In this document: piece after piece, positions 2,317 through 20,192 of the stretch
How the letters are laid out: every line of letters starts with the position of its first letter
How positions within the stretch are numbered: position 1 is the stretch's first letter
DNA from: a virus
Lineage: Duplodnaviria; Heunggongvirae; Uroviricota; Caudoviricetes
Reading direction: 5' to 3' (one strand)
IMG/VR virus record: IMGVR_UViG_3300028602_000006
Length of the DNA stretch: 64,000 bases
Notes under the pieces: model-generated
The model's input: the letters and a program-made list of their open reading frames with translations, nothing else
What the model was told of the DNA's origin: nothing
Database searches by the model: none
Translations under genes and position numbers: made by a program

Positions 2317-2424
2317 ATGATGGAAGTACAAAAATATATTAGGGAAAACGGTCTCGATAAACTTCGGGAAGAATTTTCGATAATTGTTACCGATTATCCT
2401 GACCGAATTGGAGCAATATTATGA
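2317..2424 (+). other. 35-aa leader ORF homologous to the N-terminus of the RNA-ligase-like gene at 7102, translationally coupled (ATGA) to the nuclease-helicase gene
   Basis: Hand translation gives MMEVQKYIRENGLDKLREEFSIIVTDYPDRIGAIL. This aligns with MTMHVQKYLREKGLKSLIDEFHIDVREYDDRIV of the 7102 ORF at roughly 60 percent identity. Its stop TGA at 2422-2424 overlaps the ATG at 2421. Confidence 0.5.
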
Positions 2425-4619
2425 ATACTATTAAACTTACGCATCCTTTTATAAATAAATGTCCTGACATTGATGAATTATTCTTCAATAAAGATGGCGA
2501 AGTTGTTTGTACGATTAACGCCTTTTGTGGTAAAATTAAAACTTTGTCAGCAAAGTACTCCGACAGGATGGATGAAAATAAATTCAAAGGTGATGCTTTA
2601 GAGTTGTTTACTGAATTTATGATCCGAACAGCGCCTGAAGACAATCGTATTGGTATTTACAACTACAAACCTATTACTGATGCAGAAGACGATGATGTCG
2701 GCGTTGATGGATTTGGGGCAGGCGAAGATGGAAATCCAGCTACAGTTCAGGTGAAGTACAGGGCCGGTAATTATGTCTTGACAGCAAATGCAGATCACCT
2801 TTCTAATTTTCTTACTGCGTCTTGGAATGACTTCGCAGTTCCTATCAATTCAAAAACAAATATGCTTATTGTCACAACAGGCCAAAAGGTAGATGAAAGA
2901 ACTCGTCAAAAGATGCTCAAAGACAAAGTGAGAGTACTTAACAGAGATTCTTTACGAAGAATGTACGATAATCGTCCTGAATGGTGGAAACGATTTTACG
3001 AATCAGTAAAAAATAACCGTTTTGCTCCTAGCCACAAACGTACCCCCATCGTTTTAAGACAGCATCAAAAAGAAGCAAAAGACGCAATCAAAAATGATAA
3101 AAACGGTAAGGGTAAAGTACTTCTTCCCACTGGAACAGGGAAAACCATAATTGAGGTCCATACAGCAATTGATTCAATCAAAGCGCTAAGGCGTAAAAAA
3201 GTAATCGCCCCCATCATTAAAGTTAATTCGAGTCGTATTCTTCTTTGCTTCCAATTAGCTGATGATTTTATTAAAGAATTCGCTATGGCAAAAATAAATG
3301 CTCGATATGTTAATTTCAATTCGGGCAAAAAAGATGAAACAGAATATGCTGAATTGATGCAACAAGAAGGGTGGGGGTATAGAAAAATTCTATCCACTAC
3401 AAATCCCCAAGAAGTTGCTAAGGTCTATGAGGATTGTAAAAAGAAAAATATGCCTTTGGTTATCTTCAGCACTTATCATTCCTCTGAAAGACTGGCTGAA
3501 AGTGGATTGGTTCCCAATATGACAATTAATGACGAAGCTCATAATCTAGTTTCTAGAAATTTTCATAGGGCCGCTAAATTACCTACTGATAGTAATATCT
3601 TCTTCACTGCGACTGAAAAGGTAACAGATTCCGATGACGGTTTGGGCATGAACAACGAGGACGTGTTTGATAATATAATTTACACAAAATCTGCAAAGGA
3701 ATTGATTGACGCAGGAGAAATGGTTCCTCCTTATCTTCATGTTGTTCGATCTTCTAACGAATGCCGCATTGATACGGATTACGAAATGATGTTTCAATCT
3801 ATCGTAGAAGCATTTAAACATCATGAAAATAAGATAAAAGAAGTGTCTTATGATGCTGAAAATATAGGCGCTAAAGTTCTTGTCGTTTGTAGAGGACAGC
3901 AGGATCTACTTCAGATGTTTAAGACAAAAGCGCTTGAACATTTTAAGACAAATTACCCTGATATCCATCTATTTGCCTTATCTTCTGAATTTGGGATGGT
4001 TAATGATGGAGAGTTCTTTGAACCTCCTGTAACAAATATCAAGAAATATCATATGTTGAAAAAACTTAAAGCTATGGGTCATAACGAGAGGGCTTTGATT
4101 TTTCATGTCGATATGATTGGGGAAGGGATTGATGTCCCCGGTGTTACAGGAATAATGCCATTTAGGAATTGTGAAGAGTCTAAATTAATTCAGAATATTG
4201 GCAGGTCAACTAGACTTCATCCTGAAGATCGTAAGCGTTTTTACAATGAAGAAATTAGCCCTAATGACCGAACAATAGGATGGATTAAACCTTATGCATG
4301 GGTTATCATCCCATCATATATGATCGATTCTGAAGGTATCGAGGCTCGTTTTAGATTTATTATAGATCGTGTCAGAAGAGAGTACGGCTACATCCCTCAA
4401 CAGCATACAGTTATAGATAATGTTGAGGGTTTAAGCGATGAAGACGAAATTGATACTGTCAATAAAATCACTAAGAAAAAGAAACAAGTAAAATCTCATA
4501 TAGAAGAATTCAAACATGAATATGAAAAAGTTTGTGTTATGGAGAAAATTATCATGGAAGATAAGTTGACTCAAAAAGAGAAGGATGTATGGGATGAACT
4601 TAAGGCTATGGGATTGTAA
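2421..4619 (+). CDS. PD-(D/E)xK-like nuclease domain fused to SF2 (DEAH) helicase; restriction-enzyme-like motor subunit
   Basis: N-terminal GVDGFG...VQVKY (D...QxK variant of PD-(D/E)xK). Helicase motifs I LLPTGTGKT, II NDEAHN, III FFTAT, and a QNIGRSTR arginine finger. Confidence 0.7.
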   Translation: MNTIKLTHPFINKCPDIDELFFNKDGEVVCTINAFCGKIKTLSAKYSDRMDENKFKGDALELFTEFMIRTAPEDNRIGIYNYKPITDAEDDDVGVDGFGAGEDGNPATVQVKYRAGNYVLTANADHLSNFLTASWNDFAVPINSKTNMLIVTTGQKVDERTRQKMLKDKVRVLNRDSLRRMYDNRPEWWKRFYESVKNNRFAPSHKRTPIVLRQHQKEAKDAIKNDKNGKGKVLLPTGTGKTIIEVHTAIDSIKALRRKKVIAPIIKVNSSRILLCFQLADDFIKEFAMAKINARYVNFNSGKKDETEYAELMQQEGWGYRKILSTTNPQEVAKVYEDCKKKNMPLVIFSTYHSSERLAESGLVPNMTINDEAHNLVSRNFHRAAKLPTDSNIFFTATEKVTDSDDGLGMNNEDVFDNIIYTKSAKELIDAGEMVPPYLHVVRSSNECRIDTDYEMMFQSIVEAFKHHENKIKEVSYDAENIGAKVLVVCRGQQDLLQMFKTKALEHFKTNYPDIHLFALSSEFGMVNDGEFFEPPVTNIKKYHMLKKLKAMGHNERALIFHVDMIGEGIDVPGVTGIMPFRNCEESKLIQNIGRSTRLHPEDRKRFYNEEISPNDRTIGWIKPYAWVIIPSYMIDSEGIEARFRFIIDRVRREYGYIPQQHTVIDNVEGLSDEDEIDTVNKITKKKKQVKSHIEEFKHEYEKVCVMEKIIMEDKLTQKEKDVWDELKAMGL

Positions 4620-4684
4620 ATATTATTGACATTGCTTGTCGGATATGTTAATCTTTTCATATCTTAAATGGTAAAGGATATTTA

Positions 4685-5881
4685 ATGAGTCAAGAAAAAA
4701 TATTGGATGCTCAAGCTGTTAGAAGTGTTTATGAGAAGTTTTCTATAGATTTGCCAAATATAGGCAATCTACAGAACGTTTTTACTCCTTATTCGCTTTG
4801 CAAGGATATGATTGGACGCCTGAAGAAGTATAAGAGGAAGTTTGAAGGAGCGAACTTCTCTGTTTTTAATCTTGAATTTGCTGAAGTTTTAATGTATGAT
4901 TATGGAGTTAAGGCAAATCAGATTTGGTTCTTTACTGATTGTGTTGAGAAGAGCAAATTCGCTCAGTTGAATAGGTATGCGGGGTTGAATGTCGAATTGG
5001 TTAATTTAAGCCGATTCTTACGGGAGAAGATTACTATGAAATTTGATGTTGTTATTATGAATCCGCCTTATCAGGCCCCTAAAGCCAAAGAGCACGAAGG
5101 GAGAGGAAAATGTGGAACATCGCTGTGGGAAGATTTTGTTAGGAAATCCTTTGAATTGGCGAAAGATGATGGATATGTTTGTGCTATTCACCCTAATAGG
5201 TGGAGAAGACCCGAGGGCAAAATTGGCGAATTAATTAAGTCAAAACAAATTCATTATCTTGAAATGCATGGACTGGAAGACGGAAGGAAAACATTTTCTT
5301 GCCAAACCGATTATGATTGGTATATTGCTCAAAACAAAAAATCAGAGACCAATACGCAAGTTGTAGACTATGATGGTGAATCAAATTCAATTGATTTGAA
5401 AAACGCTCCTTTCATTCCCAACTCCAATGTGAAAGATGTTTTGTCTCTCGTCGCAAAAGAAGGAGAAGAAAAAGTCAATTTGTTATGGAACTGTGAATAT
5501 CATACTCAAGCAAGAGCAAAAGACGGAACGATGTCACCAATACAAACCGATGAATTTAAATACCCTTGTGTTTATTCTGTAACAATCAAAGGAGAAGTTA
5601 AGTTTTGGTACTCAAGCAAAAAAGAACAATTTTTTGGAATTCCTAAGGTCATATGTTGCAATGGTCATACTATGCCAATTGTTGACAAAAATGGGGAGTA
5701 CGGATTAACTCAATTCGCATTTGGAATAGCTGATAAAAAAACAAATTTAGAAAAAATACAAAATGTTATGAATTCTGATGAATTCAGGAAAACAATAATG
5801 GGTTATAGAGATAATGGTGGCAATGTTTATGACAAGAACATGATAGCAACTTTCCGCAAAGATTTTTGGAACGAAATATGA
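4685..5881 (+). CDS. N6-adenine DNA methyltransferase (NPPY) with C-terminal putative target-recognition region
   Basis: VVIMNPPYQAP is a motif IV. Upstream NVFTPYSLCKDMI is a motif X-like element. No clear FxGxG motif I in this ORF. Confidence 0.6.
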   Translation: MSQEKILDAQAVRSVYEKFSIDLPNIGNLQNVFTPYSLCKDMIGRLKKYKRKFEGANFSVFNLEFAEVLMYDYGVKANQIWFFTDCVEKSKFAQLNRYAGLNVELVNLSRFLREKITMKFDVVIMNPPYQAPKAKEHEGRGKCGTSLWEDFVRKSFELAKDDGYVCAIHPNRWRRPEGKIGELIKSKQIHYLEMHGLEDGRKTFSCQTDYDWYIAQNKKSETNTQVVDYDGESNSIDLKNAPFIPNSNVKDVLSLVAKEGEEKVNLLWNCEYHTQARAKDGTMSPIQTDEFKYPCVYSVTIKGEVKFWYSSKKEQFFGIPKVICCNGHTMPIVDKNGEYGLTQFAFGIADKKTNLEKIQNVMNSDEFRKTIMGYRDNGGNVYDKNMIATFRKDFWNEI

Positions 5882-6453
5882 AAACCACCACAAAAACTTG
5901 TACCAAACGCCAAAATCGAAAAAAACAAACTGCTGAGGATTTTACTCCGGCATGGTTGGTTAATCAAATGCTCGACAAGTTAAATGAATATGGAAAAGAA
6001 TCATGGGAAGAAGGGAAAACTTTTCTTGATCCTGCTTGCGGGAATGGAAATATGCTCGTATGTGTTTTGAAGCGTAAAATAAAACTAGGACATGATCCAT
6101 CAGAGGCATTGAAAACTATCTATGGAACCGACATAATGGATGATAATATCAAAGAGTGTCGCTTAAGGCTCCTTAAAATTATTCAAGAAGAAGGAATTAA
6201 AATAACACTTGAGCACATTAAATCTGTGTTTAATAATATTATTGTAACGAGATTGAGTAGATACAAAAGTGGATCTCTTGACTATAATTTCAAATTCAAA
6301 AACAAAGCATCGCATAAAGATGTTATTAAGTGGTTAGACGGAATACAGAACCACAACTGGCTTGAGTTAGTGGGACACGAAAACATTAATGCCATCATAA
6401 AAAATGACGTTGAAGCTAGTTTTGTTGAAGAGAAATTTGCCGCATTCTTTTAA
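5866..6453 (+). CDS. Methyltransferase N-terminal-like fragment (motif X + motif I + post-I, no NPPY)
   Basis: FTPAWLVNQML, LDPACGNGNMLV (FxGxG-type) and IYGTDIMDD. Overlaps the previous ORF by 16 nt in another frame. Confidence 0.45.
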   Translation: MERNMKTTTKTCTKRQNRKKQTAEDFTPAWLVNQMLDKLNEYGKESWEEGKTFLDPACGNGNMLVCVLKRKIKLGHDPSEALKTIYGTDIMDDNIKECRLRLLKIIQEEGIKITLEHIKSVFNNIIVTRLSRYKSGSLDYNFKFKNKASHKDVIKWLDGIQNHNWLELVGHENINAIIKNDVEASFVEEKFAAFF

Positions 6454-6775: not shown

Positions 6776-7055
6776 ATGCAAACTAAAACATGTTCAATTT
6801 GTAAAGAAGATCTATCTATACATAACTTTTACAAAGATAAGAAGTCTCCTGACAGGCATAGTTATCGATATTTTCGGATGGTATGAAGTGGTCAAACTAT
6901 GGAGGTAGAACGGGATGGCAAATAGATCATATCATTCCTTGTGCAAAATTTGACTTGACAGATGTAAAAGAACAGCAAAAATGTTTTCATTATTTAAATT
7001 TACGACCTTTATGGGGAAAGGACAATCAGAATAAAGCTGCAAAAATTGCTTGACA
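6776..7055 (+). pseudogene. HNH endonuclease, apparently frameshifted (zinc-finger N-part and HNH core in different frames)
   Basis: Frame 1 reads MQTKTCSICKEDLSIHNFYKDKKSPDRHSYRYFRMV*. The +1 frame continues ...GGRTGWQIDHIIPCAKFDLTDV...NLRPLWGKDNQNK* (HNH D-H-I...N...N). The shift lies near the T-run ATTTTC at about 6878. Confidence 0.45.
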
Positions 7056-7078
7056 TTTATCATCGAATCATATACAAT
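7050..7078 (+). promoter_or_regulatory. Sigma70-like promoter (TTGACA-17-TACAAT)
   Basis: TTGACA at 7050-7055 with a 17-nt spacer to TACAAT at 7073-7078. Lies 24 nt upstream of the rnl-like ATG. Confidence 0.55.
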
Positions 7079-7101
7079 GACGTAAACAATGGAGAAATAT
7101 T

Positions 7102-8343
7102 ATGACAATGCATGTTCAAAAGTATTTACGAGAAAAAGGTCTTAAATCTCTGATAGATGAATTCCATATAGACGTTCGTGAATATGATGACCGAATTGTC
7201 TTGAATTACGATCAAATAGAATCGCCGAGGTTTCATCCTATTTGTGATGAATGCCGAGCGCTTATTCTCCGTAAGTCTGATTGGTCAGTAATGGCTCGCT
7301 CGTTCGATAGGTTCTATAATTGGGGAGAAGGCGTAGAAGATCGTGTTCTTAAAGAAAATCCTTTAATGCAAAGAATTACTATCGATCCTTTTTCATCTAC
7401 AATATACGATGGAAATAACAAGTTTATGCCGTTCCCCTTGCAAAACTCTCTAGTGCAAGAAAAACTAGATGGGTCTCTCATATCTGTATATTGGGACGGA
7501 GAAGATTGGTGCGCTTCAACTAGAAAGATGGCCCATGCTGAGGGTCAAACTAATTTCGGAACCACATTTTCTGAAATATTCTGGGGCGTAGATAAGGATT
7601 TGAAAGAAAAACTTTCCAAGTCTAATTGCCATCAGCAAACTATTGTTTTTGAACTAACGGGGCCAGCGAATAGGATCGTGACCGCTTATCCTAATACAGG
7701 AATAACTTTAATCGGAGGCCGGTGGAACCTAGAGAGCCTTGACTATAAGGAACTAACTGCCAAAGAGCTAGATGACTTGGAAAAATCATGGGGTATAACC
7801 CGACCAAAAAATTACGAGGTCGATGATGCTACTAATTTAATCTCATTAGTTCATGGATTTCCCGCCATGGACGAGGGAGTTGTCTTGGTATATGAAAATA
7901 CAAATGGCTCTCATTTTCGTGTGAAGGTGAAAAACCCTCGTTATGTAGCTATCGCTAATATGAGGGCTAATGGAGGTATTTCACCTAAGCGAATTCTCTT
8001 TCTTATTATGGAGAATGAACATCACGAGTATTTGAAATATTTTGAGGAAGATCTCAAATACTTCAAATTTGTTGAGGAAGAATATCTCGAAGCAATAAAT
8101 CGTATTACAAATACATGGAATAAGGTAAAAGACATTAAAGATCAGAAAGAGTTCGCTTTGACAATGATGCCTCTTACTGAATATTCATTTGAAAAAGGTT
8201 TATTGTTTTCCGTCAGAAAAAACGGGACAACTGTTGAACAAGAACTTAAGAAAATAGAACCGAAGAAAATTGCGTTATCAATGAATCTTAAGGGGAAATT
8301 CGCCAAAGAATTTGGTGTACAAACGGAGGAAGAAGATGAGTAA
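7102..8343 (+). CDS. ATP-dependent RNA ligase-like nucleotidyltransferase (Rnl1-like)
   Basis: Motif I KxDG in QEKLDGSLISVYW. Size 413 aa. SD GGAGAAATATTATG. Confidence 0.5.
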   Translation: MTMHVQKYLREKGLKSLIDEFHIDVREYDDRIVLNYDQIESPRFHPICDECRALILRKSDWSVMARSFDRFYNWGEGVEDRVLKENPLMQRITIDPFSSTIYDGNNKFMPFPLQNSLVQEKLDGSLISVYWDGEDWCASTRKMAHAEGQTNFGTTFSEIFWGVDKDLKEKLSKSNCHQQTIVFELTGPANRIVTAYPNTGITLIGGRWNLESLDYKELTAKELDDLEKSWGITRPKNYEVDDATNLISLVHGFPAMDEGVVLVYENTNGSHFRVKVKNPRYVAIANMRANGGISPKRILFLIMENEHHEYLKYFEEDLKYFKFVEEEYLEAINRITNTWNKVKDIKDQKEFALTMMPLTEYSFEKGLLFSVRKNGTTVEQELKKIEPKKIALSMNLKGKFAKEFGVQTEEEDE

Positions 8344-8546
8344 AAATACAGTATTTGACATATCTACGGACATTGCAAATTGTTTTCCTGTATCTATGGA
8401 ATACAAACGGAAAATCAGGAATATGATACTTCGAGCCGCTAAACAAGCTATTCTAGAGCAGCAATTGGATAATACTACAATTGATTCAATAAATAGGTGG
8501 ATAGAGGCTGGCTAATATTCACTAAAATAAACTTTGCTTAAATTAC

Positions 8547-8574
8547 TTGATTTTTGGTCTAGTTATAGTATAAT
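8547..8574 (+). promoter_or_regulatory. Sigma70-like promoter (TTGATT-16-TATAAT)
   Basis: TTGATT at 8547 with a 16-nt spacer to a perfect TATAAT at 8569-8574. Lies upstream of 8602. Confidence 0.5.
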
Positions 8575-8601
8575 GGGGTTGTTGAATAAGATTGAATATA
8601 A

Positions 8602-9411
8602 TTGAAAGGAATAAATATGAAGATACATTTGTTGACGATTGATCCTCAGCGAGATTTCTGTAGTCCAAACGGCGCTCTTTTTGTTCAGGATGCAGATCAA
8701 GACATGATTCGTTTAGCGGCAATGGTTGACCGTTTGCGCAATAAAATTGATGATATCCACGTTACGCTGGATAGCCACAATGAAGTAGACATTGCTCACC
8801 CTATATTCTGGATTGATTCTAACGGAGCGCATCCTAATCCCTTTACTATTATTACAGAAGAGGATGTTGTCAAGGGTGTATGGACAACTACTAGGCCAAC
8901 ATGCCGCCAGCGAGCAGTTGATTATGTTAAAGCCTTAGCTTCCAACGGGCGCTACCCTCTTTGTATTTGGCCTCCTCACTGTATTATCGGTACAGAAGGA
9001 TGGACAATTCAGCAGCCTCTTGCTGACTCATTGTCAAATTGGTGCAAAGATCGCTTTAAGAAAGTAGATTATCAGGTTAAGGGTTCAAACGTATTTACTG
9101 AGCACTATAGCGTTTTCAGGGCAGATGTAATAGATCCGTCTGATCCATCAACGATGTTAAACACTGATCTCATTAAGGTTATTTCTGAAGCTGACGAAAT
9201 TTTGATCGCTGGCGAAGCAAGAAGCCATTGTGTCAATCATAGTTTTCGTGATCTTATCGGGGAACTTGGCAAGGAACACGCTCAGAAGTTCATTCTTCTT
9301 GAGGACGCTATGAGTGATGTAACGGGATTCGAAAATCTTGGAAAACAGTTTTTCGATGATATGATAGCTCTCGGCGTAAAATCAACCACAACTAAAGATT
9401 ATCTTGCATAA
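8602..9411 (+). CDS. Isochorismatase-family cysteine hydrolase (nicotinamidase PncA-like)
   Basis: N-terminal LLTIDPQRDFC (Asp of the D-K-C triad) and C-terminal GEARSHCVNHS (catalytic Cys context). Confidence 0.5.
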   Translation: MKGINMKIHLLTIDPQRDFCSPNGALFVQDADQDMIRLAAMVDRLRNKIDDIHVTLDSHNEVDIAHPIFWIDSNGAHPNPFTIITEEDVVKGVWTTTRPTCRQRAVDYVKALASNGRYPLCIWPPHCIIGTEGWTIQQPLADSLSNWCKDRFKKVDYQVKGSNVFTEHYSVFRADVIDPSDPSTMLNTDLIKVISEADEILIAGEARSHCVNHSFRDLIGELGKEHAQKFILLEDAMSDVTGFENLGKQFFDDMIALGVKSTTTKDYLA

Positions 9412-9447
9412 TAAGGATTTATCTTTAATTAACTAAAGGGGTAAAAT

Positions 9448-10221
9448 ATGCCTGATATTACAAATGAAACTACTGATATGACGAATCTACAGACGGCTTC
9501 CCGTTATGGATTCAGCGCTGTAGGACTTGATTCCTTGGGCGCTTCTGAATATACATTGGCTACCGTTGTTGTGGATGTCTCAGGATCAGTATCTGGATGG
9601 GTTAAACAACTAGAAGATTGTCTTAAGGCGATTCTTAAATCATGCCAAAGTTCACCTAGAGCAGATAACCTTCTACTGCGTTTAGTTTCTTTCGGAGATA
9701 ACGTCAACGAAGTTCATGGGTTTCGTCTTTTGGGCGACATTGATCCCAATGAATATGACAATTGTTTGACAATAAAAGGATGTACCGCTCTATTTGACGC
9801 AACGCACACTTCTGTTGAAGCTACAGCAGATTATGGCAAGTTGCTTATAGATCAGGGCGATATGACTGCGAATGCGGTTATCTATGTATTGACGGATGGA
9901 GGAGATAATGCCTCGAAGAATACTGCTTCTACTATTAAGAAATTATTGCAAAAAGTTAGATCGGATGAAAAACTGGAATCAATAGCAGTTATTCTAATTG
10001 GGGTGGGGTATGACGAAGATCATCTAAAGATATATCTTGATAAGTTCAAAAATACTGCCGAACTAGATCAGTTTGTCGATTTAACTGAATTGTTTAATAA
10101 TAGCTCGCCCGACAAGGCATTAGCTAAACTTGCAGGATATGTTAGTAAAAGTATATCGTCTACTTCACAGGCGCTTGCTAGCGGATCTTCTGCCGTATCA
10201 TCTTCATTATTGACATTTTAA
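9448..10221 (+). CDS. von Willebrand factor A (vWA) domain protein, TerY-like
   Basis: MIDAS motif VVVDVSGSVSG, downstream TDGGDN, about 250 aa. Confidence 0.6.
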   Translation: MPDITNETTDMTNLQTASRYGFSAVGLDSLGASEYTLATVVVDVSGSVSGWVKQLEDCLKAILKSCQSSPRADNLLLRLVSFGDNVNEVHGFRLLGDIDPNEYDNCLTIKGCTALFDATHTSVEATADYGKLLIDQGDMTANAVIYVLTDGGDNASKNTASTIKKLLQKVRSDEKLESIAVILIGVGYDEDHLKIYLDKFKNTAELDQFVDLTELFNNSSPDKALAKLAGYVSKSISSTSQALASGSSAVSSSLLTF

Positions 10222-10259
10222 GCGGAAACAAATTAAGTTTCTGACATGGTGAGGAGCTT

Positions 10260-10294
10260 GGGGTGGAGTAGTACTGAACTCTCCACCCCTTCTT
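10260..10294 (+). terminator. Hairpin terminator candidate
   Basis: GGGGTGGAG-loop-CTCCACCCC (9-bp stem) followed by TTCTT. Confidence 0.4.
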
Positions 10295-10310
10295 ACAATA
10301 GGAGCGAAAT

Positions 10311-10607
10311 ATGATTAAGTATAAAAACGGATTTGCAGGCCATATCGAAACATTAGAAATTGGCGATAGAATGTCTGTATTTTCTGGCCAAAGTTTTTAT
10401 CCTAATTGTTTGTTTATTAAAGTTACTTCGAAAGGGTTCAACATACTTAATGTCGATACGAATAGAGTGGTTCTGAAAAGGCATTTATATATGAGAGGAA
10501 TGGGTGGTAAACAATACCCTAAATATGGAGTCATTAAAGGAAATTTTGTTATTCCATCATGGTTATCTATACAGAAGAAATCACAAGAAAGAGAAATTGC
10601 GTCATAA
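10311..10607 (+). CDS. Hypothetical protein
   Basis: SD GGAGCGAAATATG. No recognised motif. Confidence 0.4.
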   Translation: MIKYKNGFAGHIETLEIGDRMSVFSGQSFYPNCLFIKVTSKGFNILNVDTNRVVLKRHLYMRGMGGKQYPKYGVIKGNFVIPSWLSIQKKSQEREIAS

Positions 10608-10618
10608 AGCGAGGAGTA

Positions 10619-11100
10619 ATATGAGTATATATAGCGATATCAAAAAGAGAATTTTAGAGTGTATGAAGTCTGGCGAAGCAGAAGAGCGAGACATTTTAAG
10701 GACGCTTATAGGAGAAATCCAATCTAAGATGTCTCGTGAAGGGAAAAACGAAGCCGATGATACGATGGTTGAAAAAACACTCATTTCTTTTAAAGAAAAC
10801 GCTTATCAAAGCACACTTGAAGGGATATCTGAAAAAATTGGCGCTGAGTCCTGTACCGATGCTTGGCTGGAATCTGACAAAAGAGCAAAGATAGAAATAG
10901 CGATCTATGAAAAGTTCTTGCCCAGTTATGAATCTGTAGAAAATATTATAGTTCTATTAGAAGAGTTCAGGGATAGAATTTTATCGGCAAAATCAGATGG
11001 CCCCGCTGTAGGCATGGCGATGGGATTTTTGAAGAGTGCGGGTAAGAAAGTACAGGGCAAGGACGTATCTGAGGCCGTTGCTATTATCAGGAAGGTTTAA
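10619..11100 (+). CDS. GatB/YqeY-domain protein
   Basis: Start placed at the ATG with SD GAGGAG. IKKRILECMKSGEAEERDILRTLIGEIQ and YEKFLPSYESVENI...GPAVGMAMGFLKSAGKKVQGKDVS match the YqeY pattern. Confidence 0.5.
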
Positions 11101-11309
11101 AAAATGAAAATTAAATCTAAAAAACAAAAATATGATTCGGGGAGCGGGTCATTGTTTTTTATGTTCTATGGGTCATCCGAAGATGAGGATAAGTGGGGGA
11201 AGCTTCTTACTGTCAAGTTCGGATTCAGGAAAATAAAGAGTAATATCTTTGTTAAGCCCTAATAATTCACGGAAGATATTTAGTATTGGCGCATAAATAG
11301 GCAATAAAT

Positions 11310-12185
11310 ATGAATACAGATAGCTATTTTGAAATAGGTAACTCTCATGAAGTTTGCCAAGATTTTGCAATTTCCGGCAATATTAATGAGAATATAAGTT
11401 TTGCCATTGTAACGGACGGATGCACGACGTCTCATAATCAGTGCGCCCAAGTAGATACAGGGGCCAGAATTTTAGCCTATTCCGCAAGAGAAGCCTTAAA
11501 AAAGATTTGGGCAGATAAGGATTCAACAATATTCGAAAACACGACTCAAGAAATGGTTAGTGAATTTTTACGGAACCAATCAATTGTTACAACTAGATTG
11601 ATTGAACGTCAACTTGGTCTAGATCCATTATGTGCCGACTGTACGCTTGTTGTGGCTGTTGCAGATAAATTCGGGAATGCTCATTCTTTTGTATACGGTG
11701 ACGGATCTGTTTTTGTACAATTAAAGGATGGGTCGCAACATATGATGGATGTGACATTTTTGAGTGGAGCGCCTCTTTATTTGTCCTATCAAACAGATGA
11801 ACCCAGAAAAATTGCATATATGGGTGTTTATGGTAATCTTCCAGTCCTTATTGATCGTTATATTTTGGACGGAGGAGAAATAGAAACAAAAAACTCTAAC
11901 CAGATTTTAGCATATGATTATGGTTTATATGGAGCTTGCAATTCTCAATGGAAGGACGTTGATTTTATATCTGTAACATCCGATGGCGCTAAAAGTTTCT
12001 TGAAAAATGAGGGAAATGAAACAAACACAGTCCCTCATATTAAAATAATGAACGAATTCAATGCTATCAAAAACAGAAATGGAGTTTTCATTCAAAGAAG
12101 AATGAAGACGATGGGGAAGTCTAATAAGAAATTAAATATCTCTCATTACGATGATATTTCTATATCTGCCATTTTAGTTGGATAA
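11310..12185 (+). CDS. PP2C-family Ser/Thr phosphatase-like protein
   Basis: FAIVTDGCTTSH resembles the PP2C metal-binding xxDGHGG motif. GDGSVF lies downstream. Placed between the vWA and kinase genes. Confidence 0.45.
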   Translation: MNTDSYFEIGNSHEVCQDFAISGNINENISFAIVTDGCTTSHNQCAQVDTGARILAYSAREALKKIWADKDSTIFENTTQEMVSEFLRNQSIVTTRLIERQLGLDPLCADCTLVVAVADKFGNAHSFVYGDGSVFVQLKDGSQHMMDVTFLSGAPLYLSYQTDEPRKIAYMGVYGNLPVLIDRYILDGGEIETKNSNQILAYDYGLYGACNSQWKDVDFISVTSDGAKSFLKNEGNETNTVPHIKIMNEFNAIKNRNGVFIQRRMKTMGKSNKKLNISHYDDISISAILVG

Positions 12186-12188
12186 ATC

Positions 12189-13877
12189 ATGCCAAAAATC
12201 GCATATAATATTGAGGGAATTGGAAATGTTGTCGTAACAGACAATAATTACCTTGGGGCTGGCGGCGAGGCGAATGTCTATGCGAAGAATGATCTTGCAA
12301 TAAAGATATATCACGATCCCTCTCGGATGATACCCATTCAAAAGATAGAAGAATTGCGGGAGATTAAAGACAAACGAGTCCTCGTACCAAAGCATATTGT
12401 TTATAAATCAGGAAGCTCCCCTGTAGGGTATGCAACTCCTTTCAAACCTGATACGCATCCTTTATGTAAACTCTTCACAAAGACATTTAAAGTTAAAAGT
12501 GGGATTAGCGATGACATGATAAATAATCTCGTTGTTGAAATGCAGCAAACTATTAAGAACATACATAAGGCAAATTGCTTAGTAGTTGACTTGAATGAAA
12601 TGAACGAGCTGGTTTCTCCTAAATTCGATAACATATATTTTATTGATGTCGATAGCTATGAAACCCCATCATTCAGGGCTACGGCGATAATGGAAAGCGT
12701 CAGAGATAGGCAGATTAGAAAACAGCGATGGAATGAAGGAAGCGATTGGTATTCATTTGCCATTTTATCGTTTCAGATGTGGATTGGCATACATCCTTAT
12801 AAAGGCAAACATCCCGATTATAAACCCGCTGAGTGGACAAATCGCATGGATGAAGGCGTATCTGTATTCGATCCTAAAGTTATTTTACCTAGAACTTGCT
12901 CGGATTTGTCTGTTATACCCAAAAGTCATATAGAATGGTTGCGAGATATTTTTGTCAATGGAGCTAGATGCTCTCCGCCTGATATGTCAGACAATTTACT
13001 TATAGTTGTCCCAAATTCATTTAAATTTATTACGGCTAGTAAATCTTTTGAAACAAAACTTATAGAAACTTGTTCTGAGCTAATTAATCGAGTCTTTAAC
13101 TTTATTGGGGTTAACTATTTAATAGGCAAAACTAATATACACAGGGGCAGGGCAATCGTACCTGTTAATATTGATGGGGCAGATGAAGTGTTAATGTGCG
13201 AATCGGAGGGAGTTGACCCTATAATTTGTATTCAAAAAAACGGGATAGCCAGATTTTATTGCGAGAAAGGTCAAGAGTTTGGTTCAATATCTGCAAATTC
13301 CATGATGGCTAGAAACGGCTGTATTTATACAATATATGACGGACGTTTAATGGAAAACACATTTAGCCGCATGGGGAATAAGCTTATACATTCCTGTAGG
13401 CAATCCGCTTCTGTAATGGACTTATCGACGCAAATGTTTAATGGGGTTATAATTCAAGATATATTAAACAAGAAGTATGTTACGTTACCCTATGCGAAAG
13501 GTCTCTGCGCTCATCTTCCAGTAAAAGAACTTGATGGTTATCGCATTCTAGGCGCAAAATCCGAGCGAAATGTTTGTGCTATTATGGCTGAAAAAAGTGG
13601 TAAATATTATCGCTTTGTATTATCGTTTGGCGCAACATATTCTAATTATACTGTTAGAGTTGTTGCGGATGTTCCCTATGCCGACATCAATTTAACAGTA
13701 ATGCCCAATGGAGTCGCAGTTCTTGCCTTAGAAGATTCTGTAGAAATATTTAAAGATGAAGGTGTTAAGATAATTGACAATCCCCCATTCGACGCTACAA
13801 AAAGAATATTTAATATCTCCGGGGTTATACATTATATTGATGGGAAAGAATTATATACTGCAAAAATGAAGAGTTGA
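12189..13877 (+). CDS. Ser/Thr protein kinase-like protein with large C-terminal extension
   Basis: Gly loop GAGGEANVY, AIK lysine, catalytic-loop-like HKANCLVVDLNEMN, DFG-like IDVDSYE. Confidence 0.55.
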   Translation: MPKIAYNIEGIGNVVVTDNNYLGAGGEANVYAKNDLAIKIYHDPSRMIPIQKIEELREIKDKRVLVPKHIVYKSGSSPVGYATPFKPDTHPLCKLFTKTFKVKSGISDDMINNLVVEMQQTIKNIHKANCLVVDLNEMNELVSPKFDNIYFIDVDSYETPSFRATAIMESVRDRQIRKQRWNEGSDWYSFAILSFQMWIGIHPYKGKHPDYKPAEWTNRMDEGVSVFDPKVILPRTCSDLSVIPKSHIEWLRDIFVNGARCSPPDMSDNLLIVVPNSFKFITASKSFETKLIETCSELINRVFNFIGVNYLIGKTNIHRGRAIVPVNIDGADEVLMCESEGVDPIICIQKNGIARFYCEKGQEFGSISANSMMARNGCIYTIYDGRLMENTFSRMGNKLIHSCRQSASVMDLSTQMFNGVIIQDILNKKYVTLPYAKGLCAHLPVKELDGYRILGAKSERNVCAIMAEKSGKYYRFVLSFGATYSNYTVRVVADVPYADINLTVMPNGVAVLALEDSVEIFKDEGVKIIDNPPFDATKRIFNISGVIHYIDGKELYTAKMKS

Positions 13878-13909
13878 AAATTACATAAAATAAGGGAGCA
13901 GTTAGAAAA

Positions 13910-15109
13910 ATGAACAACGAGAATAAATCCGGTTTAACCTTATTCACTGTTATGATAATGCTGGCGTTTTTATCTATAGTGGGGGTATATGCATACAACG
14001 CTATGAGGACGGACATCTATATTTCTAACAATTATAGAGAAGGAGTTGAAGCTTTTTGTCAGGCCGATGCGGGTATTTTTTATGTTAGGGGATTAATAGA
14101 GCAACAGCTTAAAGAGGATACTCTTATATTTGTGGATGGGGATAACTCAGTTTTTTATGAGCCTCCCGAAGGATTTACATTCTTGCCTATCACTAATATA
14201 CATAAGATATCTGAGGGTATATATTGCTATGAATGTACAGGAAAGAAGAATAATTCTAGCGCTACGGTTAAGGTGGTTGTGGCCAGAAAACCTCTCCTTA
14301 TGGCAGGGCTGTTGGGGGATTTAAGATTAAACATACAACCTTTGGTGAATATTTATAGCTATGATTCCATAAGTACATTTAATCCTATTCCTTCAGACAG
14401 TTCATCAGAAGCAACCATCGGTTCAAATTTTTTAATAGAAATATCTCCCGGAGTATTTATCGACGGAGAGATAGAGATTGGACAGTCACCTGATGGGATA
14501 CCTGCTGTAATTGTGGGGGATTTAGCAGCTCCAATAGTTGATTTTGGAAGATTTGAAGAAGATCCGCTCGGCGCTATTGGAGGAGAAATTGAATCACAAT
14601 TTATCGAATATATGCAACCTGTTAATAATAACAATTTATTGGTAGATCCTCCTCAGGCAGTAGTCGGTACGGAACTATTTATGAAGAAAAATACTGCAAC
14701 TCAATTTGTTACACTAGAGGCGGGAAATTATTATCTCACTGATATTCAAATCGGTCCAGACTGTGTATTAACAATTGATGACTCAAACGGTCCCGTTAAC
14801 ATTTATCTGGACGGAGAAATGTATGCAGGCCCAGGTAGCGACATAAATAGCCCATCGCCATTGTCTTTCAGTATTTTTTCTAGGGCAGAAGATCCTATTT
14901 TAGTGCAACCAAACGGGAGTTTTGACGGGTTTATATATGCGCCATTTTCAGAAGTTACTATGAAACCGGGGAATGATGGTCATGGTGTTGTATGGGGAGA
15001 TAAAGTATATTTGTATCCTCAGGGCGATTGGTATATTGATATAAATCTTTTAAAGAGATTTTTGTCGAAAGAATTATATTTTATGAGCTGGAAAGAAATT
15101 AGAAACTGA
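13910..15109 (+). CDS. PilX-like (type IV pilus minor pilin/assembly) N-terminal domain protein
   Basis: GLTLFTVMIMLAFLSIVGVYAYNAMRTDIYISNNYREGVEAFCQADAGIFY resembles the PilX_N pattern (hydrophobic helix ... AfqAAEAGl). Confidence 0.35.
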   Translation: MNNENKSGLTLFTVMIMLAFLSIVGVYAYNAMRTDIYISNNYREGVEAFCQADAGIFYVRGLIEQQLKEDTLIFVDGDNSVFYEPPEGFTFLPITNIHKISEGIYCYECTGKKNNSSATVKVVVARKPLLMAGLLGDLRLNIQPLVNIYSYDSISTFNPIPSDSSSEATIGSNFLIEISPGVFIDGEIEIGQSPDGIPAVIVGDLAAPIVDFGRFEEDPLGAIGGEIESQFIEYMQPVNNNNLLVDPPQAVVGTELFMKKNTATQFVTLEAGNYYLTDIQIGPDCVLTIDDSNGPVNIYLDGEMYAGPGSDINSPSPLSFSIFSRAEDPILVQPNGSFDGFIYAPFSEVTMKPGNDGHGVVWGDKVYLYPQGDWYIDINLLKRFLSKELYFMSWKEIRN

Positions 15110-15119
15110 TTATTATATC

Positions 15120-15147
15120 TTGACTTAAAGCCCATATATGATATAGT
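15120..15147 (+). promoter_or_regulatory. Promoter (TTGACT ... TATGAT / TATAGT)
   Basis: TTGACT at 15120, N11, TATGAT at 15137-15142, then TATAGT. Lies about 40 nt upstream of nadE. Confidence 0.45.
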
Positions 15148-15186
15148 AACTAGAAAATTATGATTGTATCGATAAGGATTTGAATT

Positions 15187-17250
15187 ATGTCAATTGAACA
15201 AAAAATAAGTATATGTTTCGGGCAAATTGAGGTCGCTCCCGGTCTCCCTAGGGTCAACACTGAAAAAATGTTGAAGTATATCAAAGAAGCTAAAGCTGAA
15301 GCATCGGATCTATTGATATTCCCAGAATTATGCATTCCGGGATACCTTCTTGGAGATATGTGGGAACGTCCTGATTTTCTAGAAGATTGTGAAGAATGCG
15401 GTAAGAAAATAATTGAAGCTTCTCAAGGAATAACTATAGCCTTCGGGAATGTCAAAACAGATCCTAAAAATAAAAACGAAGACGGCAGAATCCGTAAATA
15501 TAATTGCTGTTTTATAGCATCAAACGGGCAATTGGTCACAACTGTCACAAAAACTTTACAGCCAAACTACAGGGAATTTGATGATAATCGCCACTTTTAT
15601 GACAAGCGTAAGCAATTGACTGATTCATATCTTTCAGAGCCAAGTACAAAGGTTTCATTTTCTGAATTCATTGATAAGGCCTATGAGCCATCCTTAACAA
15701 TAAATGGAATTAAGATTGGATTCTTACTCTGTGAAGACGCTTGGGATACAGATTATTCATTCTCTCCTATAGATGTACTCGCACCCAAATGCGATCTGAT
15801 AGTCAATATGAGTTGTTCTCCGTTTACCATGGGGAAGAACCAAAAAAGGAACAGGCTTTTCTCTCAAAGAGCTAAAAATAATAATGTTATGATTGCCTAT
15901 ATAAATAATGTGGGCATTCAAAATAACGGGAAAACAATTTATACTTTCGATGGGAATAGTTGTCTTTATGATATTAATGGTGCGCAGTTTGACCTTTCTG
16001 CTCCTTTTGAAGAAAGCCTTGAAGTTTTAAGCTTGGATTTAGATGCTCGTACAGGATCATATGAAGAGAGCGCCATTGGTTCGTCAAGCGATGATATTGA
16101 AGATTTGTATTCATCAATTTGTTATGGAATCGAAAAATTTCTTCAGCAGATAGGAGTTAATAAAGTAGTAATTGGTGTATCCGGCGGGATTGATTCGGCT
16201 GTTGTTGCGGCGTTGTTTTCTGAAATTCTTCCTCCGGAAAATATTTATCTTATTAACATGCCTAGCTCTTTTAATTCTCAAACCACAAAAGACTTGGCAA
16301 AAGACTTGGCTAAAAATCTGGGATGTAAATATAGTATAATTCCTATTGGATGTAGTATTGATCACACTAGAGAACAATTATTAAAAGAAGGATTTGATGT
16401 TAGTAAATTCGTTTTCGAGAACATTCAGGCAAGAGATCGTTCTTCCAGAATTCTTGCGGCCATTGCTTCTTCAGTAGGCGGGGTTTTCACTTGCAACGCC
16501 AATAAGTCTGAGGCAACCGTAGGGTATACGACTCTCTATGGGGATTTGTCCGGATTTTTGTGCCCATTAGCTGACGTATGGAAGACAGACGTGTACAAGC
16601 TTGCTGAGTATATAAATGATAGTAGTGATGAGATGATCATTCCCTATGGCATACTCGCAGTTAAGCCTTCGGCAGAATTAAACAACGATCAAAATGTCGA
16701 TGAGGGGAAGGGAGACCCTATTATTTACCCCTATCATGATTTGCTATTTAGAAGTTGGGTAGAAAAGTGGGAGAGGGCAACCCCCGCTGACATTCTACAA
16801 TGGGTCATAGATGATGATTTAGAAGGGAAATTAGGCTTTGAGGATGGGGATATAGTTGCCAAGTATTTTGGAGGAGATAAAAGAGCTTTTGTTGCCGACT
16901 TGGAAAGATGGTGGAATCTATATGACGGATTTGCTTATGCGAAAAGAATTCAGGCTCCTCCTGTTCTTGCGATCAGCCGCAGAAGTTACGGATTCGATCA
17001 CAGAGAAAGTTTAACCGCTCCATTTTATAGCCAAAAATATTACAAACTTCGTATGCAATATTTGGGAGAAGATTTGTCCATGAAAGAGGTTTATGACAAT
17101 TTAAAAACTATAAAAGAGAATGTCATTTTTGTTATGGCGAAAGAAGCTGGATTAGATATGGGAAAGTTTACAACCAAGGATTTAGCTCTTAAGGGATTCA
17201 TGTCCAAGATCTATGATTTATCCGATGAAGATATGGTTCATTGGGAGTGA
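15187..17250 (+). CDS. nadE: Glutamine-dependent NAD+ synthetase (nitrilase/CN-hydrolase domain + NAD synthase PP-loop domain)
   Basis: N-domain FPELCIPGY (Glu) and LLCEDAWD (Cys). C-domain PP-loop VIGVSGGIDSAVVAAL. 687 aa, typical of the fused form. Confidence 0.8.
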   Translation: MSIEQKISICFGQIEVAPGLPRVNTEKMLKYIKEAKAEASDLLIFPELCIPGYLLGDMWERPDFLEDCEECGKKIIEASQGITIAFGNVKTDPKNKNEDGRIRKYNCCFIASNGQLVTTVTKTLQPNYREFDDNRHFYDKRKQLTDSYLSEPSTKVSFSEFIDKAYEPSLTINGIKIGFLLCEDAWDTDYSFSPIDVLAPKCDLIVNMSCSPFTMGKNQKRNRLFSQRAKNNNVMIAYINNVGIQNNGKTIYTFDGNSCLYDINGAQFDLSAPFEESLEVLSLDLDARTGSYEESAIGSSSDDIEDLYSSICYGIEKFLQQIGVNKVVIGVSGGIDSAVVAALFSEILPPENIYLINMPSSFNSQTTKDLAKDLAKNLGCKYSIIPIGCSIDHTREQLLKEGFDVSKFVFENIQARDRSSRILAAIASSVGGVFTCNANKSEATVGYTTLYGDLSGFLCPLADVWKTDVYKLAEYINDSSDEMIIPYGILAVKPSAELNNDQNVDEGKGDPIIYPYHDLLFRSWVEKWERATPADILQWVIDDDLEGKLGFEDGDIVAKYFGGDKRAFVADLERWWNLYDGFAYAKRIQAPPVLAISRRSYGFDHRESLTAPFYSQKYYKLRMQYLGEDLSMKEVYDNLKTIKENVIFVMAKEAGLDMGKFTTKDLALKGFMSKIYDLSDEDMVHWE

Positions 17251-17456
17251 AATAGTGAAAGAAGAAAAAGAACATTTTCAGAAAAAGAAAGTAAACAAAC
17301 TCAACATCCAAGAGGCGAGAGATATGATGGATCTATTGAGGAAATGTGATCAAACTTTAAGCAAGAAATTCAGGCATGTCAGGGAAAGAGTAGAATACCT
17401 AGAAAAATCTAATACTTAGTAGAGGGAAAAGGGCGATCTTGCTTGAATAAAAATAC

Positions 17457-17939
17457 ATGAGCAAGATCATAAAAACTCAAATAGATGGAGTCCCCGTAGA
17501 ACTGGAAATCAGAAATGTCGGTCCTGCCTCCATTGACGAAATTCAACGCTTAAGCGAGAATTTGGCAAAAGAATCAAGCGTCCGTAATCCGTCCTCAACA
17601 GAAGTTAGAGTAATTAGAGTAGGGGATGAAAATAGGCCAGCTACGCCGGAAGAAGTTGAGAAAATTGAAGGCCAAATTAAAGATACTCCTGTTGAATTAG
17701 TGGGAGACCTTATTGAAAGCTTAAGTAACGTATCTGAAGGTAAAGAGTGGTGGCAGTCGAAGATAGTTTGGACAAATATTGCGGCCATAGTTACAGCGAT
17801 TACAGCACTATTTGGATTGCCCATTCAAATCAACCCTGAGATAGCAATGGTGCTTTTCCCTGTTATACTCGGTTTGGTAAATGTTTTTCTTAGGGGTAAG
17901 ACGGATAAGGCGATCAAGCCAATTTTTAAGAAAAATTAA
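17457..17939 (+). CDS. Hypothetical protein with C-terminal transmembrane anchor
   Basis: Hydrophobic stretch WTNIAAIVTAITALFGL...VLFPVILGLVNVF at the C-terminus. Confidence 0.4.
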   Translation: MSKIIKTQIDGVPVELEIRNVGPASIDEIQRLSENLAKESSVRNPSSTEVRVIRVGDENRPATPEEVEKIEGQIKDTPVELVGDLIESLSNVSEGKEWWQSKIVWTNIAAIVTAITALFGLPIQINPEIAMVLFPVILGLVNVFLRGKTDKAIKPIFKKN

Positions 17940-18857: not shown

Positions 18858-20192
18858 ATGGCATCGTTAGTTGAGAAAGTACATCTGATAAAGTCTGACC
18901 CAGTAAACAATAACAATAAGTTTTGGATTGGAGAATTATATGATGATGATTCCGTGGTTTGTAGATGGGGAAGAGTCGGAGATACTGGGCAAAGTAAATC
19001 ATTCCCCAGCGGAGGAAAGAAATTTTTAGATTCAAAAGTCCGCTCTAAAAAGAAATCAGGACGTAATGGTGAAATCGCATATCGAGAAATAGAAATTATA
19101 GACGGAGCAAGCGTTCCTGCACCCAAAACATCCTCTACAAAAACTACCAGCGGTAGCCAACTATCTCAAATCGCCAAAAAGCAAATTCAAACTGGTGGTA
19201 ATCCTGAGGCACTTAAACTCATTGATTACCTTGTTAAAGTTAACGCTCATCAAATCGCAAGTATGACGGGTGGCCAAATTACTTATAACTATGATACAGG
19301 TCTTTTCCAAACTCCGATGGGTCTTGTTTCTCAGGCTAATATTGATGAAGCGAGAGATAAAATTACAGGTATTGGTGATATTGTAGCAAAGAAAAAGTAC
19401 AATGATCCTAATCTTATGGAACTTACTAGGGATTATCTTATGCTTGTCCCTCAGGATATTGGGCGTAAAAGGCTTGAACTTGATGATTTTTGGTGCGATC
19501 TAACTGCCGTTCAGAAACAGGATGCTATTCTTGACGGGCTTCAAGCTTCTTTAACGCAAGCAGCTAAAACCCCCGTAAAGTCCGTCAAAGATAATAAGCC
19601 CGAAGAGCAAATATTTCAAACTAAGCTCGAACTCGTTTCCGATCCTAAGGCGATTAAGAAAATAAAGGACTTATACCATAAAACTCGTCAGTCTATGCAT
19701 AATTGTTATCACCTTGATGTCAAAAAAGTATATACAATTGATATTAATACGGTTCAAGATGCGTTCAAAAGAGACGGCGCTAAGATGGATAATGTTTGGG
19801 ATCTTTGGCATGGGACTAGAGCGAGTAATCTACTCTCCATTCTTAAGGGCGGATTGATTATTCCGCCGTCAAATGCATCAAATGTTACTGGGCGTATGTT
19901 CGGAAATGGGGTTTACGCTTCTGATCAGTCCACAAAGGCTCTTAACTATGCTTATGGATATTGGGGCGGGGGCAAATCAGATGACAACTGCTTTATGTTC
20001 CTTCTTAAAATGGCCATGGGTAATTATTACACTCCTAAAAGTCCGTTTTCAGCTAACTCTGCTCCCAAAGGCTATGATTCCACCTTTGCACAGGCTCATA
20101 AGAGCGGGGTATATAATAACGAAATGATTGTATATAGGACATCCCAAATAAATCTTAGGTATTTGGTGGAATTTAGTCCGAATGGTAAATAA
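18858..20192 (+). CDS. Poly(ADP-ribose) polymerase-like protein (WGR domain + PARP catalytic domain)
   Basis: N-terminal WGR (FWIGELYDD...CRWGRVGDTGQ). Catalytic H-Y-E triad context HGTRASN...GIYFA-like GNGVYASDQ...YNNEMIVY. Confidence 0.75.
   Translation: MASLVEKVHLIKSDPVNNNNKFWIGELYDDDSVVCRWGRVGDTGQSKSFPSGGKKFLDSKVRSKKKSGRNGEIAYREIEIIDGASVPAPKTSSTKTTSGSQLSQIAKKQIQTGGNPEALKLIDYLVKVNAHQIASMTGGQITYNYDTGLFQTPMGLVSQANIDEARDKITGIGDIVAKKKYNDPNLMELTRDYLMLVPQDIGRKRLELDDFWCDLTAVQKQDAILDGLQASLTQAAKTPVKSVKDNKPEEQIFQTKLELVSDPKAIKKIKDLYHKTRQSMHNCYHLDVKKVYTIDINTVQDAFKRDGAKMDNVWDLWHGTRASNLLSILKGGLIIPPSNASNVTGRMFGNGVYASDQSTKALNYAYGYWGGGKSDDNCFMFLLKMAMGNYYTPKSPFSANSAPKGYDSTFAQAHKSGVYNNEMIVYRTSQINLRYLVEFSPNGK

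Follow-up and report, generated by a model that had tools for sequence, protein, structure and literature searches.

A vWA-PP2C-kinase triad joined to a predicted nicotinamidase in a huge-phage genome: a conserved four-gene cassette found in NAD+ salvage clusters

We have analysed a 64,000-nucleotide stretch of a tailed-phage genome (Caudoviricetes; IMG/VR record IMGVR_UViG_3300028602_000006), referred to here as the window, that encodes a vWA protein, a PP2C-type Ser/Thr phosphatase and a Ser/Thr kinase whose C-terminal domain is a beta-propeller. Together with a nicotinamidase-like (PncA-like) gene directly upstream of the vWA gene, these three genes make up a cassette that bacteria of many phyla and huge phages have kept intact on one strand, for the most part with one gene order. 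We think it about evenly balanced that the locus represents, in a huge phage, a conserved four-gene cassette lying within Preiss-Handler clusters for the salvage of nicotinamide adenine dinucleotide (NAD+), and that its kinase and phosphatase act as a switch that gates salvage. The cassette sits in NAD+ recycling clusters of many bacteria, and more than 150 huge-phage contigs have it as well, so that NAD+ salvage, and not tellurite resistance, is probably what the switch controls. As far as we have found, a propeller-kinase switch of the TerY-P/YegL-PphC-YegI type joined to a nicotinamidase in NAD+ salvage clusters is undescribed, and our literature search returned no description of a PncA-vWA-PP2C-kinase cassette. 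The coordinates of all features are collected in Table 1.

The relatives of the window are uncultured huge phages of 462-595 kb (LR756511, LR745208 and LR756500) and IMG/VR contigs of up to 618 kb. Protein-level searches were needed, since a DNA-level search against phage records gave a match of 85 bases only. Viral loci around homologues of the kinase were surveyed with tblastn and hidden Markov models, yielding 88 loci with the kinase. The PP2C gene is present in all 88, the vWA gene in 84 and the PncA-like gene in 81, and in 81 of the 88 the PncA-like gene lies directly upstream of the vWA gene. All four genes are found on one strand in 80 loci, and the order PncA-vWA-PP2C-kinase is seen in 73; rearranged loci mostly retain the pairs PncA-vWA and PP2C-kinase (L045, L075 and L083). 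A reciprocal scan that started from the PncA-like gene found the other three genes within 10 kb in 67 of 78 new viral loci. An earlier note on this stretch, made from its sequence alone, had recognized the triad and called it unexpected on such an element; in related viral loci it is instead near-universal. The ORFs named in that note are all present at its coordinates, on the plus strand.

Variable inserts of up to 6.5 kb separate cassette members in the phage loci. The window has two, namely the YqeY-like gene that the earlier note placed between the triad genes and, beside it, an open reading frame (ORF) of 98 codons. Neither of these, nor the PilX-like gene that follows the kinase gene, is a conserved part of the cassette in related loci. 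The YqeY-like protein (Pfam YqeY, E 1.7e-4; phrog_1460, E 8e-15) is encoded near the module only in the window's own contig (L008) and in L073, and it is only in L007 that a homologue of the 98-residue ORF (51% identity) precedes the vWA gene.

The same cassette is found in bacterial chromosomes. One genome per GTDB species was surveyed and the best 80 of 166 confirmed matches were taken; 46 loci, with at least 5 kb of upstream sequence, could be evaluated for all four genes. All four are present in 40 of these, and the canonical order is seen in 36 bacterial loci, with median gaps of 41, 88 and -4 nucleotides. The vWA gene adjoins the nicotinamidase gene and sometimes overlaps it. The PncA-vWA-PP2C-kinase order recurs in at least eight bacterial phyla, and the G+C content of the loci, which ranges from 0.27 to 0.75, tracks that of the genome. 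Among the carriers are complete chromosomes of Capsulimonadaceae and, from Armatimonadota, Chthonomonadaceae, Spirochaetota and Acidobacteriota, contigs of megabase size. On a 2.28 Mb Spirochaetota contig (L090) the genes run PncB-NadE-PncA-vWA-PP2C-kinase-NrtR, between CheR-PAS genes and an OmpL1 porin gene, and on a 6.18 Mb Capsulimonadaceae chromosome (L104) they run PncA-vWA-PP2C-kinase-PncB-flavin reductase-sigma70. That these two loci are mis-binned phage was considered and rejected, as their neighbours include genes for CheR, OmpL1, sigma-70, GGDEF and BlaR1 proteins and their G+C content matches the genome; it is possible that some short low-G+C contigs of metagenome-assembled genomes (L094, L124 and L151) are mis-binned phage. 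A neighbor-joining tree of the kinases, which is rough and indicative only, groups the bacterial sequences by taxon and places the viral ones in several interleaved groups, and this grouping suggests that the bacterial genes are resident and that there has been more than one transfer. That ordinary bacterial chromosomes carry it too points to a basic function of the cassette in cellular NAD+ homeostasis, which phages would have re-used.

In Variovorax, replicons of ~0.8 Mb that are annotated as plasmids have the PncA-vWA pair only, without PP2C or kinase. In the cultured strain Variovorax sp. WDL1 (plasmid 2, NZ_LR594690.1; L169) the pair occupies positions 8052-9711 of the locus and adjoins two Nudix genes and genes for a Macro protein, an NAD kinase and a nucleoside 2-deoxyribosyltransferase. 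This strain offers an experimentally tractable core pair.

Clustering and Pfam assignment of the genes around the cassette give five conserved neighbours: NrtR, PncB, NadE, ADP-ribosylglycohydrolase and a WGR-PARP protein. NrtR (Nudix plus NrtR_WHD) is near the cassette in 28 bacterial and 10 viral loci, and PncB is within 10 kb, and so linked to the nicotinamidase gene, in 15 bacterial and 27 viral loci, in phages often between the vWA and PP2C genes. Many loci have NadE, the enzyme of the last step of NAD salvage, inside the cassette or next to it; examples are L017, L040, L044, L061, L069, L076, L084, L090 and L121. The nadE gene that the earlier note found 3' of the kinase gene is thus no coincidence: NadE, PncB and NrtR recur among the genes of the triad, to which the nicotinamidase belongs as an integral fourth member. 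No Ter genes are among the conserved neighbours of related loci, so that the tellurite linkage suggested for the triad does not hold here. As reportedly described by Rodionov et al. in 2008, the Nudix-related regulator NrtR controls salvage operons of the form pncA-pncB-nadE, and the bacterial cassettes, flanked by NrtR, PncB and NadE, resemble these; we know of no classical NrtR regulon with vWA, PP2C or kinase genes between pncA and pncB/nadE.

NrtR lies directly 3' of the kinase gene in L135 (11700-12425), L147 (5552-6298) and L090 (11710-12423), and in L135 and L147, which are of the Thiotrichales type, it is the sole cassette-linked neighbour of the kinase. Because it adjoins the kinase gene even where the other three genes are not within 10 kb, NrtR is a candidate substrate or partner of the kinase. 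A gene for an ADP-ribosylglycohydrolase occupies exactly the PP2C position in L108 (1698-2771) and L111 (1759-2832), and in L105 (8861-9958) it is found ~1 kb 3' of the vWA gene, with the kinase gene on its other side; no PP2C was detected in these three Capsulimonas and Armatimonadota loci. This hints that in the lineages with the hydrolase the modification that is erased might be ADP-ribose.

All four cassette proteins are predicted to be catalytically or metal-binding competent, as their key residues are kept. The nicotinamidase-like gene, absent from the earlier note, is the most constant partner of the triad. In an alignment of 21 sequences (A4) the catalytic triad D14, K160 and C210 is invariant, as are the metal-site residues D57, H59 and H126, which align to the DwH and WPvHC motifs of the yeast nicotinamidase Pnc1 (2h0r). 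Pnc1 is also the best match of the family profile in the PDB (E 1.3e-16), where other nicotinamidases were matched as well. The metal site (DxH ... H) separates nicotinamidases from isochorismatases. Pfam Isochorismatase and NCBIfam PncA match the protein in part only, owing to ~60 extra residues in the family (positions 60-120) that canonical PncA does not have. From these residues the protein is a predicted nicotinamidase and the fourth member of the cassette.

The vWA protein has the metal ion-dependent adhesion site (MIDAS) motif that the earlier note had pointed out, DVSGS, that is D43-x-S45-x-S47. In an alignment of 30 sequences D43, S47, T113 and D150 are invariant and S45 nearly so, and we therefore take the site to be complete. 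The single window sequence scores below the cutoff against Pfam VWA_2 (E 3.5e-4), PF00092 is found in many members of the family, which carry the Joint Genome Institute name YegL, and phrog_7371 matches the window protein with an E value of 5e-13. The family also has a conserved, Ser/Thr-rich C-terminal tail, LAKLAGYVSKSISSTSQAL...LTF.

The phosphatase assignment of the earlier note stands: PF13672 matches the protein with 34 bits against a cutoff of 24, and residues D18, D36-G37, D131, D225-G226 and D281-D282, among them the acidic metal ligands, are invariant in the family alignment. The family profile found no match in the PDB by sequence, and a fold search was required. The AlphaFold2 model (pLDDT 95.1) gave PPM/PP2C phosphatases as all of its top 50 Foldseek matches in the PDB. 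For the kinase, too, the assignment made from sequence was borne out, with a full set of catalytic residues and a kinase fold recovered by structure. Structure prediction, on which the earlier note had staked both enzymes, thus gives both folds.

The last 275 residues of the kinase protein are modelled as a soluble, seven-bladed beta-propeller, which is presumed to be a sensor or docking domain; neither a Zn ribbon nor an OB fold was found at this C-terminus. Alignment suggests that the invariant S156 is the counterpart of one of the activation-loop autophosphorylation sites of YegI.

The closest characterized relatives are in Escherichia coli K-12, where yegL-pphC-(yegJ)-yegI has the same order of vWA, PP2C and kinase as the window. 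YegI and the window kinase align over residues 1-283 (hhalign probability 97.7%, E 1.4e-12) and share the N-terminal strands, a KIYH motif, DxNxxN and IDxDS(F/Y)Q. YegL and the window vWA protein align from the MIDAS site through the Ser-rich tail (92.8%, E 4e-7), and the match of PphC to the window PP2C is weak (27% probability, E 6.6e-4, 121 columns); both belong to PF13672 (PP2C_2). The membrane-anchored C-terminus of YegI did not align to the window kinase, which differs in having the full catalytic set and, in its model, the soluble propeller. In contrast to the cassette, the E. coli triad has neither a nicotinamidase gene nor NAD genes in its vicinity. Ser/Thr kinase activity is documented for YegI, whose substrates are unknown (bioRxiv 10.1101/819920), and PphC is its partner phosphatase (bioRxiv 10.1101/819920; 10.1101/303594).

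The earlier note had likened the triad to TerY-P. In PMC11090510 the TerY-P triad of Anantharaman, Iyer and Aravind (2012) is described as a vWA protein resembling TerY, a PP2C and a kinase that ends in a Zn ribbon or, in defence versions, in an OB fold, with genomic ties to tellurite resistance and to restriction or CoCoNuT systems. The same source cites the TerY-P-like triads of Gao et al. 2020 as stand-alone antiphage systems. The likeness lies in the adjacent TerY-type vWA, PP2C and Ser/Thr kinase genes, which in TerY-P are predicted to form a metal-sensing phosphorylation switch, and it is upheld by the homology and order shared with yegL-pphC-yegI. It fails at the end of the kinase, which is a Zn ribbon or OB fold in TerY-P and a beta-propeller in the window, and in the genomic context, which there is Ter genes and restriction or CoCoNuT systems and here is PncA, PncB, NadE and NrtR. 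A constant nicotinamidase gene further sets the cassette apart from TerY-P. The locus is therefore a homologue of TerY-P and YegL-PphC-YegI that fails two TerY-P features, the C-terminal domain of the kinase and the genomic context, and has a fourth gene. PADLOC matched neither the window vWA protein nor its PP2C, and no TerY-P model matched the family alignments of the vWA protein (A3) or the kinase (A1), in a release whose inclusion of TerY-P models is unconfirmed; the matches obtained were to generic kinase models only (PD-T4-6, mad6 and MkoA).

Two further systems invite comparison. The DRA0331-DRA0334 operon of Deinococcus radiodurans has, by the description in bioRxiv 10.64898/2026.01.23.701218, a vWA protein, a Ser/Thr kinase and a PP2C as here, and differs by the same description in an FHA protein, in DNA-damage sensing and in having no nicotinamidase. 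Clusters of NAD+ synthesis genes are also known from jumbo phages, with the Preiss-Handler genes pncB, nadD and nadE among them, and are believed to counter NAD+ depletion by the host (PMC11662467; PMC7824862). No vWA, PP2C or kinase is mentioned in those accounts, whereas the present cassette combines a salvage step with a signalling triad.

How might such a cassette work? In the scheme that we propose, the propeller would sense a cue tied to NAD+ consumption or turnover, and Ser/Thr phosphates would be added by the kinase, and removed by the PP2C, on the vWA adaptor, on the nicotinamidase or on NrtR. The MIDAS site of the vWA protein would bind the nicotinamidase, and the output would be a gating of the step at which NAD+ resynthesis begins, the conversion of nicotinamide to nicotinate. 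During infection, the phage would use the cassette and NadE, perhaps with the PARP protein, to keep NAD+ available. We offer only tentatively, as something that falls short of an even chance, that the phage cassette serves NAD+ maintenance in this way, possibly against host defences that deplete NAD+ (NADases). With similar reserve we suggest that the cassette could represent an undescribed phosphorylation-gated entry to NAD+ salvage, in which a propeller-kinase and PP2C would act through a MIDAS-vWA protein on a nicotinamidase, which many bacterial phyla would share with a large clade of huge phages, and which would give phages a regulated NAD+ reconstitution against NADase immunity.

NAD+ depletion is a major antiphage strategy, and a regulated salvage module on more than 150 huge-phage contigs is relevant to the survival of very large phages in the face of it. 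Osterman et al. reportedly described, in 2024, the phage NAD+ reconstitution pathways NARP1 (Adps/Namat) and NARP2 (Nampt/Nmnat), which use enzymes other than those of the cassette. To our knowledge, vWA-PP2C-kinase triads (TerY-P; YegL-PphC-YegI) are widespread and have no known substrate or physiological role. If true, the proposal would give this enigmatic class its first physiological context, and the gene linkage yields a concrete, testable hypothesis, that Ser/Thr phosphorylation controls NAD+ salvage.

Several observations weigh against a salvage switch. The link to NAD+ comes wholly from gene neighbourhood, and the substrates are putative. No PncB or NadD gene is present in the 64-kb window, so that the pathway is incomplete locally, and no NrtR gene was found there. 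Myxococcota loci are without PP2C, and in loci of Thiotrichales and Beggiatoa the kinase occurs without the other three genes within 10 kb. The Ser/Thr-rich tail of the vWA protein, which we had considered as a phospho-acceptor, is equally conserved in the kinase-less Variovorax pair and need not be one; that idea has been downgraded to speculation. The homologous TerY-P-like triads of Gao et al. 2020 act, as cited in PMC11090510, in antiphage defence, so that the cassette may have such a role, and gene order maintained over long distances in phages can stem from common descent alone.

Three other explanations were considered. Were the triad a phage-borne defence or superinfection-exclusion system of TerY-P type, it would sense a rival phage and set off an abortive or protective response, and the NAD genes would be mere neighbours. 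All three proteins are homologous to those of a triad whose relatives are cited (Gao et al. 2020, in PMC11090510) as stand-alone antiphage systems, the order is the same, restriction-modification (RM)-like genes for ResIII, Eco57I and N6_Mtase proteins lie 3-7 kb upstream in the window, and 28 of 39 kinase family members match the PD-T4-6 defence-kinase models of PADLOC. We nevertheless consider this unlikely. The cassette is near-universal in the phage lineage and not a variable island, the bacterial cassettes lie in NAD salvage operons with NrtR among housekeeping genes and not in defence islands, the other loci examined did not show the RM-like genes next to the cassette, and the kinase domain structure and the PADLOC results given above do not favour it. 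A host-takeover or anti-defence role, as the earlier note had it, is possible for the triad; in the specific form of a kinase/phosphatase pair like T7 gp0.7 that rewrites host phosphorylation, with the vWA protein and nicotinamidase functionally separate, we find it distinctly unlikely. Both enzymes look catalytically competent, their genes move as one unit, apart from PncA-vWA, in the rearranged loci L045, L075 and L083, and a propeller could dock on a host protein. Yet bacterial chromosomes, which need no takeover, have the identical four-gene cassette, with kinases that cluster by taxon like resident genes in the rough tree, and the four genes co-occur in 80 of the 88 viral loci.

It is also conceivable, and in our opinion very improbable, that a general-purpose signalling triad came to lie near NAD genes by chance and that the adjacency was inherited without functional coupling. 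The viral loci all come from related huge phages with long-lived synteny, and the YqeY gene, the 98-codon ORF and the longer inserts separate the members in phages. Against this, at least eight bacterial phyla share the order, with genes that overlap or lie a few tens of bases apart; most rearrangements leave the pairs intact; many loci have PncB and NadE between cassette members; the association is recovered whether one starts from the kinase or from the nicotinamidase; and in L108 and L111 it is an NAD-linked hydrolase that stands in place of PP2C. Control of NAD+ salvage by the cassette remains the reading that we favour.

Table 1. Features of the 64-kb window discussed in the text.
Feature	Coordinates	Strand	Remarks
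ResIII helicase	2421-4619	+	RM-like trio
Eco57I-like protein	4685-5881	+	RM-like trio
N6_Mtase fragment	5866-6453	+	RM-like trio
T4 Rnl1-type RNA ligase	7102-8343	+	RNA_lig_T4_1, E 2e-17; phrog_562
Predicted nicotinamidase (PncA/Pnc1-like cysteine hydrolase)	8617-9411	+	directly upstream of vWA gene
vWA protein, YegL/TerY type	9448-10221	+	257 aa; complete MIDAS; DVSGS
98-aa ORF	10311-10607	+	variable insertion; no family match
YqeY-like protein	10621-11100	+	between vWA and PP2C genes; variable insertion
PP2C (PPM) Ser/Thr phosphatase, PP2C_2 family	11310-12185	+	291 aa; PF13672
YegI-type Hanks Ser/Thr kinase domain	12189-12983	+	residues 1-265 of 562-aa protein (12189-13877)
Seven-bladed beta-propeller (model), kinase C-terminal domain	13047-13877	+	residues about 287-560
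PilX_N + DUF7305 protein	13910-15109	+	prepilin-like N-terminal hydrophobic segment; between kinase gene and NadE
Glutamine-dependent NAD+ synthetase NadE	15187-17250	+	NAD_synthase, E 4.6e-43; CN_hydrolase, E 1.8e-13
WGR-PARP protein	18858-20192	+	WGR and PARP Pfam marks
Radical SAM protein	27384-28553	+	lysine-2,3-aminomutase C-terminal domain, LAM_C, E 1.4e-15
Transposase	47502-48731	-	phrog_506, E 1e-134; among few minus-strand genes of the window
Transposase	56209-57282	+	phrog_506, E 1e-44

The window has a G+C content of ~36% and nearly all of its genes are on the plus strand. A phage is in keeping with its PHROG matches, which are to a clamp loader, helicases, an RNA ligase and an NAD synthetase; no structural genes were found among the ORFs scanned, and there are no tRNA genes in the window. 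Scans for promoters and terminators over positions 6800-17600 gave numbers at the level of chance (45 against 37 expected, and 7 against 6.6 expected), and we claim no operon boundaries.

Loci L004, L009, L022-L026 and L068 encode homologues of the WGR-PARP protein close to the cassette. So do two bacterial loci on chromosomal-scale contigs of Chthonomonadaceae, L097 and L106, with E values of about 1e-114. It is possible that this protein is an NAD+-consuming partner that travels with the salvage module. The PilX-like gene, which the earlier note had correctly placed with nadE 3' of the kinase gene, is found at this position in no related locus and is odd for a phage. The ResIII, Eco57I and N6_Mtase genes (2421-6453) form an RM-like trio just upstream of the cassette, a phage-borne restriction-modification or anti-restriction set.

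Other proteins are encoded near the cassette in some bacterial loci. Fifteen loci of Acidobacteriota and related bacteria (among L092-L141; L139, 2685-4907) have, 3' of the kinase gene, a gene for a conserved 740-residue protein with an N-terminal methyltransferase domain, which is absent from the viral loci. A Caspase-NB-ARC-TPR protein, of a type known from conflict systems, is encoded within 10 kb of the cassette in L159 (275-3298), with clustered homologues in L097 (3718-7013), L106 (3513-6974) and L123.

The remaining genes in Table 1 include a radical SAM gene and two transposase genes, which we take, from phrog_506, to be of the TnpB/IS605 type. Genes for RNA repair (RtcB and RNA ligases), like the RNA ligase gene of the window, also flank the cassette in the phage loci L005 and L007.

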